The notes under the pieces are model-generated. The model worked only from the letters and a program-made list of their open reading frames with translations. It was not told the DNA's origin and made no database searches. 64,000 bases of DNA from Alphaproteobacteria bacterium (GTDB lineage Bacteria > Pseudomonadota > Alphaproteobacteria > MPNO01), in contig OZ219866.1 in assembly GCA_964291675.2 (NCBI GenBank), positions 3,488,001 through 3,552,000 on the forward strand, read 5' to 3'. Below, in pieces: positions 40,215 through 44,753 of this stretch. The position numbers were made by a program, and so were the translations under genes. How positions within the stretch are numbered: position 1 is the first letter of the stretch; each line of letters begins with the position of its first letter.

Positions 40215-41664
40215 GGTCGTGTCCCCAGACGTGGTGTAGGAGCTCTGGCTTCGGTTTGTAGCTGTGGGTAAGCAGCGCGCCGCCGCGACCGCCGCGAGTC
40301 TGGCGGCGGCGGGCTGCTTATCCACAGCGGAGGCCATCGCGGTTCCGGTTTAGGGTTGGGTCGTGCAACGCCAACCCGAACCTGAGGAGGAACCGCGATG
40401 ACCGACGACATGATGGCCCTGCGCGGGCTTTTGGAGAAGAGTTCCGACGCCGATCTGCTGCGCGAGATGATCGGCTTCTCGGCCGAGCGTCTGATGGCGC
40501 TGGAGGTGGAAGGGCTGACCGGCGCCGCCCATGGCGAGCGCACGCCGGAGCGGATCACGCAGCGCAACGGCTACCGCGAGCGGGCCTGGGAGACCCGCGC
40601 CGGCACGGTGGCGCTGAGGATCCCGAAGCTCAGGACGGGGAGCTACTTCCCCGGCTTCCTGGAACCGCGCCGGATGGCCGAGAAGGCACTCACGGCGGTG
40701 ATCCAGGAGGCCTACATCCAGGGCGTGTCGACGCGCTCGGTCGACGACCTGGTGCAGGCGATGGGCATGTCGGGCATCTCCAAGAGCCAGGTGTCCAGGC
40801 TGTGCGCCGAGATCGACGACAAGATCGAGAGCTTCCTCGACCGGCCGCTGGAGGGCGAGTGGCCCTATCTGTGGCTGGATGCGACCTATATCAAGATGCG
40901 CGAGATCGGGCGCATCGTCTCGGTCGCGGTGACCGTCGCGGTGGCGGTCAACGACCAGGGCCGGCGCGAGGTGCTCGGCATGGCGATCGGCCACTCCGAG
41001 GCCGAGACCTTCTGGACCGCCTTCCTGCGCGCGCTGACCGGCCGCGGGCTCAAGGGCGTCAAGCTGGTGATCTCCGACGACCACAAGGGGTTGAAGGCCG
41101 CCGCGACCCGCATCCTCGGCGCCACCTGGCAGCGCTGCCGCATCCACTTCATGCGCAACCTGCTGGCCCATGCCGGCCGTCAGGGAAGGCGCGTCGTGTC
41201 TGCCTTCGTCGCCACCGCCTTCGCCCAGGACGACGCCCAGGCCGCGAGCGCCCAGTGGCGCCTGGTCGCCGACCAGCTCAGGCCCAAGGCGCCCAAGCTC
41301 GCCACCCTCATGGACGACGCCGAGCACGACGTCCTCGCCTACATGACCTTCCCCAGGGAGCACCGAACCAAGCTCCACTCGACCAACCCCATCGAGCGGG
41401 TCCATGCCGAGATCAAGCGCCGAACCAACGTCGTCGGCATCTTCCCCAACGAAGACGCCGTCACCCGCCTGGTCGGCGCCATCCTGCTCGAGCAGAACGA
41501 CGAGTGGGCCGTCGCAAGGAGATACATGACACTGGAATCCATCGCTCAGACCAGCGACAATCTCACCGTCAAGCCGCCCGCCGTGGCAGCCTGACCCTAC
41601 CGGCCCAACACGCCGGATACCGCGATCGGCGCCGGGCTCTTACACCACGTGGCGGGACACGATC
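40215..41664 (+). mobile_element. IS256 family insertion sequence (~1450 bp)
   Basis: Terminal IRs GGTCGTGTCCCCAGACGTGGTGTAGGAGC and (rc) GATCGTGTCCCGCCACGTGGTGTAAGAGC; 8-bp flanks match only 6/8 (GGCGGCCG vs TGCGGCGG). Confidence 0.88.
40398..41594 (+). CDS. IS256 family DDE transposase
   Basis: [36 protein letters not shown]; GAGGAG RBS. Confidence 0.93.
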
Positions 41665-41735
41665 TGCGGCGGCGCGGCCGGAAGGTCCGACGGCCCCCAC
41701 GCCCCACGCCTCGCCCCCTCATCATTCCCCCCCTC

Positions 41736-41948
41736 GTCATGCCCGGACTTGATCCGGGCATCCACTGGCGCCGCCGCTCCTCCCGACGGGGCGTTGTACC
41801 GGTGGCGCCAGTGGTTGCGCGGATCAAGTCCGCGCATGGGTGGCCGGATCAAGTCCGGCCATGACGGGGTGGGGGTGGCGGTGGAGAAGCACGGGAGCCG
41901 GGTGCGGACCGCCCCGCCCGTGGGTGCCCGGAACGAGGCCGGGGTGAC
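41736..41948. repeat. Family A REP-like palindromes between IS256 and IS110
   Basis: GTCATGCCCGGACTTGATCCGGGCATCCA at ~41737; inverted copies at ~41812-41865; degenerate copy at ~41921. Confidence 0.8.
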
Positions 41949-42064
41949 AACGGAGGGGCAGGGACGGCAAGTGCGGGCGTGCGGCGATCCGTGTCCCGAT
42001 CCGGCGGATGCGCCGATAACCCGCCCGGAACAAGGCTTTGCGCCGGTCCAGCTCACATAAACCG

Positions 42065-42400
42065 TCATGGTCTCGGCGGTGCTGAGCCACCCCGTGGCAT
42101 GAAACTCGGGGCGTTCGGCTGAGGGTTTGCCGATCGTCGCGCGGGTCTGCCGTGGCAGGATGGGAACGGTGGAGGCGGCGACGCGTGAGCGTTCCGTTTA
42201 TCGGTGATGTGGTTCCCGAGATATAAACTGCTTCCGGCGGTCGGCTCCGCACCCCGTACTGTGCCCGGCCCGCGGCCGTGGACGCGCGGCAAATCGAACC
42301 GCACCCGCTCGACGGGTGCGTGTCCTTCCGACCGCTGTCCCCGCCTCCACCGTGGCGATGCCACGGCGCGATCCTACGCCGCCGTGGCGAGAGCGCAACG
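42065..42400. ncRNA. Candidate IS110 bridge/guide RNA region (strand unresolved)
   Basis: Long structured non-coding region upstream of the IS110 recombinase; several hairpins; segments matching the donor junction and target (see findings). Confidence 0.5.
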
Positions 42401-42412
42401 AGGAGGACAGCG

Positions 42413-43663
42413 ATGAAGACGGAAGGCTTGCACGTCGTGCGGCCGCGCGCGGCGGGTCTGGACGTGCACAAGATGGAGATCACCGCGACGGTTCGCCTGT
42501 GCGAGGGCGAGGGCGAGCCGGTGGTGGAGACGCGCTGCTTCAGCTCGCTTCCGAGCGGTCTGGCGGAGATGGTCGCCTGGCTGACCGGTCGCCGCGTCGA
42601 GGCCGCTGTCATGGAAGGGACCGGGATCTACTGGCAGGCGCCCTTCGCGGCGGTGGAGGCGGCGGGGATCGAAGCGATCCTGGTGCACGCGCGTCAGGTC
42701 AAGCAGTTGAAGGGGCGCAAGACCGATGTCGCCGACAGCGTGTGGCTGGCCTGCGTGTGCCAGTTCGGGCTCTGCACGCCTTCCCATGTTCCCCCCGAGC
42801 CGTTCCGGCAGCTGCGCTCGCTGAGCCGCCAGCGACGTACCCTGGTCAGGCAGCGCTCGACCGTGCGCAACCGGGTGCAGAAGATCGTCGACCGCGCCGG
42901 CCTGCGCATCGGCGGCATCCTCTCCGACGTCTTCGGCGTCAACGGCCGCAAGATCCTCGACGGGCTGGCGCAAGCCACGCCGCGCGCGGTCATCCTCGCC
43001 TCGCTCACCGGCCACGTCGCCAACAAGCTGGAGGGGCTCGGCGAGGCGCTCTCCCTGAGCCTGGGCGATAACGACCGCTTCATGCTCGGCGATCTGCTGG
43101 ACGAGCATGACGCGCTCGAGGCGCGCATCGCGTCCTACGGCGAGAAGATCGACCGGCAGATGACGCCGTGGCAGGAACAGCTCCGCCTGCTGACCACCAT
43201 CCCCGGCATCGACCGCATCGCCGCCTCGACCATCCTGATCGAGATCGGCCCGGATATCGAGGCGTTCGCCTCCAAGCAGCACTTCGCCGCCTGGGCCGGG
43301 CTCTGCCCCGGCAACAACGAAAGCGGCGGAAAGCGCCGCAACGCGCGCACCCGAAGGGGCTCCAAGACGCTGCGCGCCAGCCTCGTCGAATGTGCCCACG
43401 GCGCGGCCCGAACCAAGGGGTGCCAGTTCGAGGCCCACCACCGCGCGCTCGCCGCCCGGCGCGGATACAAGCGCGCCATCGTGGCCAGCGCACACAAGAT
43501 GCTGCGCATCGTTTATGTCGTGCTCAAGACCGGCAGGCCCTACTACGACCGCACCGCCGACTACGACGCGCTGATGGTCAAGCGCAACGCCCCGCGCTGG
43601 ATCCGAATGCTCCGCCGCTACGGCTACATCCAACCCCGGCGCGCCGAACCCAAGGCCACCTGA
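42413..43663 (+). CDS. IS110 family DEDD recombinase/transposase
   Basis: GLDVHK, MEGTGIYW, KTDVAD (DEDD); WAGLCPGNNESGG with catalytic Ser; GAGGAGG RBS. Confidence 0.93.
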   Translation: MKTEGLHVVRPRAAGLDVHKMEITATVRLCEGEGEPVVETRCFSSLPSGLAEMVAWLTGRRVEAAVMEGTGIYWQAPFAAVEAAGIEAILVHARQVKQLKGRKTDVADSVWLACVCQFGLCTPSHVPPEPFRQLRSLSRQRRTLVRQRSTVRNRVQKIVDRAGLRIGGILSDVFGVNGRKILDGLAQATPRAVILASLTGHVANKLEGLGEALSLSLGDNDRFMLGDLLDEHDALEARIASYGEKIDRQMTPWQEQLRLLTTIPGIDRIAASTILIEIGPDIEAFASKQHFAAWAGLCPGNNESGGKRRNARTRRGSKTLRASLVECAHGAARTKGCQFEAHHRALAARRGYKRAIVASAHKMLRIVYVVLKTGRPYYDRTADYDALMVKRNAPRWIRMLRRYGYIQPRRAEPKAT

Positions 43664-43982
43664 CCGGCCCGCATAACGCCGGACCGCCGCGCGGGACCGC
43701 TTCGGGCCACATCGGGGAAGTCCACCGCTCGTCTCCGCCGCCCCCTTCCGGCGATCTCAGCCAACTCCCTCCCGGCGTTGGATGGGGCCCTCGCGCGCCC
43801 CCACCGAAACTGTTTCACGGCAAACCGGACAGCAGTGGACTTGATCCGGGGGCCGGGCATGACGGTCGGGAGGAGCCGGGGGCGACGGCGCAACGAGACG
43901 ATGCGACGAGCGCGCCGCGATCCGTGTCCCGCTCCGGCCGCCGCGCCCGGGCCCCGGAACGAGCCCGGAGGCCGCGCCTCTC

Positions 43983-44753
<771 letters not shown>

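Follow-up and report, generated by a model that had tools for sequence, protein, structure and literature searches.

What decides where an insertion sequence lands when all of its copies in a genome lie in one kind of repeat? This question is raised by an IS110-family element at positions 42061 to 43823 (plus strand) of a 64,000-nt stretch of alphaproteobacterial DNA (contig OZ219866.1, 3,488,001-3,552,000, forward strand), which we call the window and to which the coordinates below refer. For this locus, it was originally predicted that an intact IS110 element is present, that its ends can be read and that its 5' non-coding region encodes a guide RNA, perhaps transcribed away from the recombinase gene. 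The element is indeed genuine and intact, and by its sequence it would seem to be an active IS110-type insertion sequence. We consider it likely that its upstream left end encodes a bridge RNA, read from the same strand as the recombinase gene, that chooses the insertion site.

Bridge RNAs (also called seekRNAs) are, to our knowledge, unique among RNAs in that they program a recombinase for both of the DNAs between which strands are exchanged, and we know of few branches of the family that have been dissected.

In the mechanism that we propose, the 352-nt left end would give rise to a bridge RNA on the strand of the recombinase gene. The RNA would fold into a closing helix around two loops, each bearing a guide, and would be bound by the recombinase. 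The enzyme, probably of the DEDD/Ser type, would exchange strands at an AA dinucleotide by a chemistry that we take, by homology, to be that of IS621. The element would thereby be placed, in a single orientation, into ~190-bp repeats whose four bases before AAA match the guide.

The element and its ends

The genome from which the window comes (two contigs, 4.8 Mb) contains eight full copies of the element at 99.5-100% identity and one 147-bp right-end fragment. The eight copies differ at 12 positions, and the copy in the window is intact. As had been read from the window, the ends are sharply defined: 8/8 copies start with TCATGG (TCATGGTCTCGG) and end with CACGGC (CTGTTTCACGGC) beside a shared A-run. 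All eight have the same orientation and lie in one ~190-bp genomic repeat, outside which the sequence differs from copy to copy.

Unoccupied repeats in the own genome join position 42064 to position 43822 with an overlap of 6 to 7 bp. The element is the sole difference between filled and empty sites, and there is no target duplication beyond the shared core, as is usual for the IS110 family. The AAACCG flanks and the target sequence predicted from them were borne out by ~99 empty repeats that join both flanks in exactly this way. The element length of 1763 bp includes the right-hand core AA; its boundaries can be slid within the shared AAACCG (42059-64 and 43822-27).

The point of exchange can be narrowed down by junctions that deviate. 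In two copies of the own genome, the right junction reads CACGGC-AA-CCGG and the left junction is still AAACCG, and one copy, inserted in a look-alike site within the right end of another copy, has CACGGC-AA-CGCCGG. At 25 unique sites of a related element in CAXXVO01, the base after CACGGC-AA is A in 20 cases and G in five. The left junctions, both in the own copies and in relatives, always retain AAAC. Judging from these junctions, exchange occurs at the first two A, which makes AA at 42059-42060 (plus strand) the left copy of the core dinucleotide and AA at 43822-43823 the right copy. From these ends, the junction of a circular form is predicted to read ...TTTCACGGC-AA-ACCGTCATGG..., with the core AA in the middle. 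Donor junctions of this kind, in which a right end is joined through AAA to a left end, are seen at head-to-tail tandems in five relatives (L066, L071, L072, L107 and L108).

The left non-coding end (42061-42412, 352 nt) is longer than the right one (43664-43821, 158 nt, plus strand, ending in ...CTGTTTCACGGC). There are no terminal inverted repeats and no long subterminal ones; the likeness between the ends is weak (CCGTCA/TCACGG, 5/6). A longer left non-coding end is the pattern of the IS110 group (PMC11208160). This and the other comparisons with published systems refer to passages of the cited papers.

Three copies have additional features. At C2:1938019-1939921 (L008, L009), a full copy is directly followed by the last 147 bp of another copy, and the junction CACGGC-AA-CGCCGGACC corresponds to insertion into the target-like site GCATAACGCCGGAC inside the resident right end. 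The copy L005 (C1:1046199-1047953) carries its right-end terminus AAACTGTTTCACGGC twice as a 15-bp tandem duplication. It also has a 1-bp deletion in its gene, shared with the copy at C1:543813-545567.

The left end has a conserved fold

We aligned 35 related left ends and derived a consensus fold on the recombinase strand with RNAalifold. The predicted bridge RNA core spans 42171-42348 and is closed by helix P1 (42171-77 with 42342-48); these limits are those of P1. Within it, the predicted target-binding loop (42187-42233) consists of an outer helix H2 (42187-91 with 42229-33) and an inner hairpin H3 (42202-07 with 42214-18). The predicted donor-binding multiloop (42237-42335) is enclosed by helix P2 (42237-44 with 42328-35; compensatory changes in six of its eight pairs) and contains two hairpins, the near-invariant H4 (42260-68 with 42276-84) and H5 (42300-05 with 42315-20; compensatory changes in 6/6 pairs). 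All of these features are given for the plus strand. Two hairpins pointed out from the window alone, GCACCCG/CGGGTGC and GGCGGTCGG/CCGACCGCT, turned out to be H5 and P2, respectively.

The six helices comprise 39 pairs, and 94.5% of their alignment cells are paired, compared with 84.6±0.5% after shuffling and 34.8-49.9% when the partners are slid. Changes on both sides occur in 24 pairs versus 12.0±1.7 in shuffles, a number reached by 0/500 shuffles. For example, among the 35 left ends, the H2 pair of alignment columns 75/129 appears as UA (14), GC (10), AU (8) and CG (2), and the H3 pair 96/112 as GC (16), AU (12) and CG (6). The non-coding end thus carries a structure supported by covariation, as expected of a bridge or seekRNA. 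Between P1 and the start codon (alignment columns 268-320), the left end is not conserved.

The sequence CACCCCGT occurs twice in the left end, near its start (42087-94) and in the donor multiloop (42250-57). Both places are conserved in the family, as CC[AG]CCCCG and [CG]NCCCCG.

Two segments covary with target and donor

The 3' strand of the target loop contains the segment AGATATAAAC (42219-42228, plus strand), which reads ATAT followed by the core AA and AC. It has the same sense as the top strand of the left flank and so would pair with the bottom strand. The motif ATAAAC (42223-28), picked out in the original prediction, is part of it. We compared 21 distinct guides with the left flanks of their elements. 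The two agree in 21/21 cases at positions -1 and -2, in 19/21 at -3, in 14/21 at -4 and in 4/20 at -5. Summed up, 88 of 147 positions are identical, whereas permutation of the flanks gives 42.1±5.0, and none of 10000 permutations reached the observed value. Sister elements within one genome also change in step with their flanks (CACC for L096, ACGC for L098).

The second segment, CGCGGCAAAT (42285-42294, plus strand), lies between H4 and H5 and includes the motif CGGCAAA (42287-93), likewise noticed at the outset. It has the same sense as the terminus of the right end, CACGGC, followed by AA and A. Here 13 distinct pairs could be compared: guide and terminus agree in 13/13 at -1 to -3, in 12/13 at -4 and in 10/13 at -5. 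The other three pairs have an RNA G opposite a top-strand A at -5, a difference of the wobble type. Again, the total was reached by 0/10000 permutations.

Hence, one loop segment covaries with the target flank and a second one with the end of the element itself, as in bridge and seekRNAs, and on the plus strand the target segment precedes the donor segment, as in IS621. A target guide and a donor guide in the left end, in that order, are the defining property of a bridge RNA. Together with the conserved fold, these matches uphold the earlier claim that the 5' non-coding region encodes a guide RNA of the bridge type; comparison of homologues had been named there as one way to check it.

A guide for the right flank of the target is suggested by the 5' strand of the target loop. 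The candidate TTCCGTTTAT (42192-42201, plus strand) shows complementarity to the top strand of the core plus right flank. Over 19 lineages (three near-kin dropped), its cognate score was 8.82 compared with 7.87 for non-cognate flanks, and 31 of 5000 permutations reached this value. The control segments s1 and s3 gave no right-flank signal. The 3' end of TTCCGTTTAT is U-rich in most relatives, and much of the signal consists of matching an A-run to a U-run. A window-based complementarity screen of eight segments detected only the left-target guide; the right-flank signal required a gapped score. The segment CCGTTTATC (42194-202), described earlier as target-like, lies on this strand of the loop, and its likeness to the target holds in the form of this weak yet significant complementarity; the minus-strand order deduced from it failed, as described below.

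Next to the core, on its 3' side, the target loop has an AC (42227-28) that never varies and is the same as the AC always present in the donor. At the 25 CAXXVO01 target sites, position +2 is unrestricted (A 3, C 5, G 7, T 10). This AC resembles the handshake guides of IS621 (PMC11208158) and may have a similar role.

Three other candidates for guides were considered and rejected. One was GACGG in the loop of H5. A second, ACGGT (42166-70), is polymorphic among the eight copies. The third, CCGCTGTCC/TGTCC (42332-40), is complementary to the target GGACAGC and had been proposed as a target match, but it forms the 3' strand of conserved stems (P2 and an extension of P1). It is identical in relatives without right-flank preference and unchanged in relatives with unrelated targets; we regard this match as due to chance.

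Occupancy of the target repeat

The genome offers an internal test of the left-target guide. The left part of the ~190-bp target repeat lies at 41900-42058 (plus strand; ~40 BLAST hits) and its right part at 43824-43851, and ~99 unoccupied sites in the own genome carry the motif of the right half. Sites without mismatch to the guide bases ATAT were occupied in five cases and empty in three, and all three empty ones have a changed AAA. With one mismatch, three sites were occupied and 24 empty; with two or more, none was occupied and 72 were empty (Fisher p = 7e-5, 0-1 versus ≥2 mismatches). The commonest variants of the left bases, GGCT (31 sites) and ATCC (18 sites), were never occupied. Outside the repeat there are three ATATAAAC sites, none of them occupied, which hints that the right flank also counts.

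The surroundings of the insertion are themselves repetitive. A different repeat, which recurs >100 times across the genome (each position gives 85-129 BLAST hits), lies directly upstream of the target repeat at 41720-41900, and the segment 41500-41680 recurs ~12 times. A sub-threshold Rfam match to CcsR1 was found at 41736-41816 (17.7 bits versus 65.3). At C1:545898-546723 (L016, L017, L020), the target repeat forms head-to-tail arrays with a 330-bp period adjoining a copy of the element. A direct repeat, GATCCGTGTCCCG(A/C)TCCGGC, is present on both sides of the insertion (~41981-42003 and 43917-43940), outside the matched part of the target repeat.

The transcribed strand

We believe that the bridge RNA is most probably read on the recombinase strand. 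Among the pairs of the covarying helices, G·U outnumbers A·C by 132 to 22 on the plus strand. Four pairs (73/131, 77/127, 91/116 and 161/189) switch between G·U and Watson-Crick pairing, and each is unpaired in 0-1 of the 35 sequences. The three G/A differences at -5 of the left-donor guide are wobbles only if the RNA is plus-strand and therefore favour this strand; U·G and G·T wobbles at the guide interface have been reported for ISPpu10 and IS621 (bioRxiv 10.64898/2026.03.19.712850). The energy of the alignment fold is -44.1 on the plus and -42.1 on the minus strand. Finally, on the plus strand, the target loop comes before the donor loop and the guides run 5'→3' towards the core, as described for IS621 (PMC11208160, PMC11208158).

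The opposite possibility is that the guide RNA comes from the minus strand, in which case the guides would be the reverse complements of 42219-28 and 42285-94, directed at the top strands of the left target and left donor, respectively. We consider this improbable. It was suggested originally by GGTTTGCCG (42124-32), the complement of the donor junction, which on the minus strand comes after CCGTTTATC. The strings used in that argument are all present in the window (AAACCG, GGTTTGCCG, CCGTTTATC, ATAAAC, CGGCAAA, CCGCTGTCC and the two hairpins), but GGTTTGCCG is not conserved, and the idea of an RNA transcribed away from the recombinase gene thereby loses its original basis. The stretch is deleted in L052, L093, L096, L098 and L106 and has a T-to-C change in the 99%-identical L049, which indicates a chance match; the surrounding GGGTTTGCCG (42122-42132, plus strand) is correspondingly gapped in five relatives and reads GTTCGCCG in L049.

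Several observations weigh against the plus-strand bridge RNA, and some of them favour the minus strand directly. For the window sequence, the minus-strand fold is the more stable one (-104.1, z -4.35, versus -96.3, z -2.59 for the plus strand), and 31 of the 35 relatives likewise have their lower minimum free energy (MFE) on the minus strand. After correction by shuffling, the z values are equal (-3.38 versus -3.41, 12 sequences); this lends nothing to either strand, and we rejected folding energy as an uninformative strand test. The count of G·U pairs is inflated because the structure was derived on the plus strand, and among the 29 pairs that appear in the predictions for both strands the excess is smaller (37 G·U versus 25 A·C). 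The segments that match the bottom strand lie on the 3' side of their loops (3' of H3 and H4), not on the 5' side as in the IS621 layout (PMC11208160). Read on the minus strand, the long and well-covarying guides would sit on the 5' side, like the long guides of IS621. At 42320-42300, a scan marks a terminator-like hairpin, with a short T-run, on the minus strand. Neither strand of the window yielded a promoter of the sigma-70 type in such a scan, and the same was true of two head-to-tail junctions (L107, L066).

Other such points concern the guides and the RNA itself. The right-target guide is weak and fails at the 25 sites of the CAXXVO01 element, which specifies nothing beyond +1. A right-donor guide, matching the start of the left end, was not found by testing every left-end column for mutual information with the variable positions of that start, nor by local complementarity of nine RNA segments to the core plus left-end start, which gave no signal beyond phylogeny. 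In an Rfam scan that covered 41500-44500 with E values up to 10, none of the eight matches came near its gathering score (best 22 bits versus 60). Of 12 runs listed, four RNA-library runs were examined (X1, X2, X3, X6). All data were unstranded contigs, possibly from DNA carry-over, which as such speak neither for transcription nor for a particular strand or RNA end; they show only the presence of the element or its relatives, and the parts not covered carry no meaning.

The libraries with parts of the element (X1-X6) are labelled sponge, marine and coral metagenomes. The contigs from X2 and X3 represent a diverged relative (X2: 125 differences over ~1360 bases).

The points that favour the minus strand are outweighed as follows. 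The called terminator is just hairpin H5 plus the complement of the conserved AAA, and the region from P1 to the start codon, where a minus-strand promoter would lie, is not conserved. The surplus of G·U over A·C in the covarying helices (132 versus 22) counts against the minus strand, on which H2 would shrink from five to three pairs, and the plus structure mirrored to this strand draws a covariation penalty. Mismatches between guide and DNA become C·A where a plus-strand RNA has G·T. Each guide would point away from the core in the 5'→3' direction, and the donor loop would come first, ahead of the target loop; both features are unlike the IS621 complex (PMC11208158).

Could the conserved segments act as DNA, as protein-binding or synapsis sites or through DNA-DNA or protein-DNA recognition of the flanks? 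This explanation would fit the fact that an RNA of the element is unobserved, and the conserved CACCCCGT, present twice, could be a protein site. Yet the six helices with compensatory changes (24 pairs versus 12.0±1.7, 0/500 shuffles) and the frequent toggling between G·U and G-C are the signature of selection on the single-stranded fold of one strand. Moreover, homologous recombinases need such an RNA (PMC11208160, PMC11187229). We regard a function as DNA as very improbable. Least probable of all is a decaying relic in which guide and occupied repeat match by shared ancestry of duplicated repeat-plus-element units, an idea that would account for all eight insertions lying in one repeat family and for the 1-bp gene deletion in two of them, but that conflicts with the differing sequence beyond the repeat, with the full-length open gene in 6/8 copies, with the mere 12 positions at which the eight copies differ, with the copy whose look-alike insertion site lies within the right end of another copy, and with relatives that have other guides and occupy unrelated sites matching these.

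The recombinase and its relatives

The gene of the element (42413-43663, plus strand) is intact and encodes a recombinase/transposase of 416 aa. It starts with ATG at 42413, with GAGGAGG just upstream. Both domains of the IS110 family are present in the protein: the N-terminal DEDD RuvC-like domain PF01548 (E 4.9e-22, 78.8 bits versus a cut-off of 29) and the C-terminal Tnp domain PF02371 (E 3.5e-23, 82.2 bits versus 21.3). In an alignment with 28 homologues of 57-92% identity, the residues D17, E68, D105, D108 and S304 are invariant in all 29 sequences. We provisionally equate them with D11, E60, D102, D105 and S241 of IS621 by order and spacing only; D105 and D108 are three residues apart, as are D102 and D105 of IS621 (PMC11208158).

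At least 6172 protein homologues were found at E ≤1e-60 among 8000 candidates scored. Relatives were present in 4 of 20 genomes in a search at the family level and in 4 of 401 at the class level, the own genome being counted in both. These few relatives made scans of wider collections necessary. The alignment scans yielded 79 loci from ~20 assembled genomes and 80 metagenome loci, of which ~20 have 53-67% identity. Where one genome holds several copies, the ends of the relatives were set by pairwise comparison. Their left ends start with AA-AC-NN(N)-[TCA]CATG and their right ends terminate in CACGGC, CGCAGC, CATAGC or CACAGC, followed by AA. All matches in a plasmid collection were ≤40% identical and annotated as 'IS110 family transposase'. 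With 416 aa, the protein falls within a branch of 395-455 aa that has been set apart from the branches of IS621 (315-330 aa) and ISEc21 (345-385 aa) (PMC11187229).

Two groups of relatives deserve mention. One assembled alphaproteobacterial genome (L055-L089, L097) holds 35 or more copies of a 91%-identical relative, some of them in head-to-tail tandems. The 25 unique sites of this relative share only (G)ACA-AA-A/G, and this very short specificity goes together with its high copy number. The gammaproteobacterial relatives (L105, L107, L110-L118) have TGGTATAAT, an extended -10-like sequence that lies ~20 bp short of the right-end terminus and is directed over the junction towards the left end. 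It was not called by the promoter scan.

Comparison with known systems

IS621, which we compared by its published description and by residue order and spacing, resembles the present element in many respects. Both have DEDD RuvC-like and Tnp domains, and in both a non-coding RNA, here predicted, is placed in the longer left end, ahead of the gene; the target loop comes before the donor loop, and the 2-nt core is part of the guides (PMC11208160, PMC11208158). Both insert without duplication into a repeated intergenic sequence and tolerate wobble at the left guide. The core is AA here and CT in IS621, and the recombinase has 416 aa, compared with 315-330 aa in the IS621/IS492 branch (PMC11187229). 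Only four variable left target bases are read here, the donor guides lie in a multiloop and, unlike in IS621, no sigma-70 junction promoter is recognisable. The layout of the guides, with the bottom-strand matches on the 3' side, may nevertheless be geometrically equivalent to that of IS621 after left and right are relabelled, since in either case a 5'-side target arm would be joined to a 3'-side donor arm; the same chemistry could then apply.

Read on the plus strand, the order of the guides is that of IS1111 seekRNAs (ISEc11, ISKpn4, ISPst6, ISPa11), in which the complement of the top strand lies 5' of the match to the bottom strand (PMC11187229), and many IS1111 members also have their donor-binding bases in a multiloop (PMC11208160). 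In IS1111, however, it is the right end that carries the RNA, downstream of the gene, the transposases have 330-350 aa, and there are subterminal inverted repeats of 7-17 bp (PMC11187229), to which the weak CCGTCA/TCACGG likeness does not compare. ISEc21, of the IS110 type, has its RNA in the upstream non-coding region and short matches to both target strands, as here, but the bottom-strand match precedes the top-strand match, the reverse of the order found here (PMC11187229). ISPpu10 and ISPpu9 of Pseudomonas putida likewise insert into multiple copies of one repeated intergenic sequence (bioRxiv 10.64898/2026.03.19.712850; PMC12288879), but they have a CT core and an IS621-like pairing logic.

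With its plus-strand guides on the 3' side of the loops and in IS1111 order, the element would thus be a bridge-RNA IS110 with a variant layout. This layout is absent from the cited passages of the literature on IS621, IS1111, ISEc21 and ISPpu10, and no search was aimed specifically at a published description of it. It may already be drawn, for ISPpu10, ISAar29 and ISHne5, in Extended Data Fig. 10c or the supplementary tables of PMC11208160.

Tentatively, we propose that the 416-aa clade, ≤40% identical to annotated plasmid IS110 transposases, may be an IS110-type lineage whose upstream RNA has an IS1111-type layout, with the top-strand guide 5' of the bottom-strand guide and the donor guides in a multiloop. 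A transfer of the RNA gene from one end of the element to the other has been proposed, and this lineage might then be its missing intermediate. Such an RNA would read ~4 variable bases plus the AAA core, and the invariant AC may be a built-in handshake guide that matches the donor and not the target.

The value of this element lies in a clean guide code, in an occupancy control within one genome and in a mixed IS110/IS1111 layout. The code from guide to target was resolved from sequence data alone for an uncharacterised branch with a long recombinase. The control is a natural one: there are ~100 near-identical target repeats, and only those that match the guide are occupied. Even if the element should prove ordinary throughout, it is a cleanly annotated member of its family with defined ends, core and guides. 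If the plus-strand reading is true, it joins the IS110-type position of the RNA gene to the IS1111-type order of guides, which would bear on the divergence of the IS110 and IS1111 groups and on the question of which features of the RNA are free to vary in engineering.

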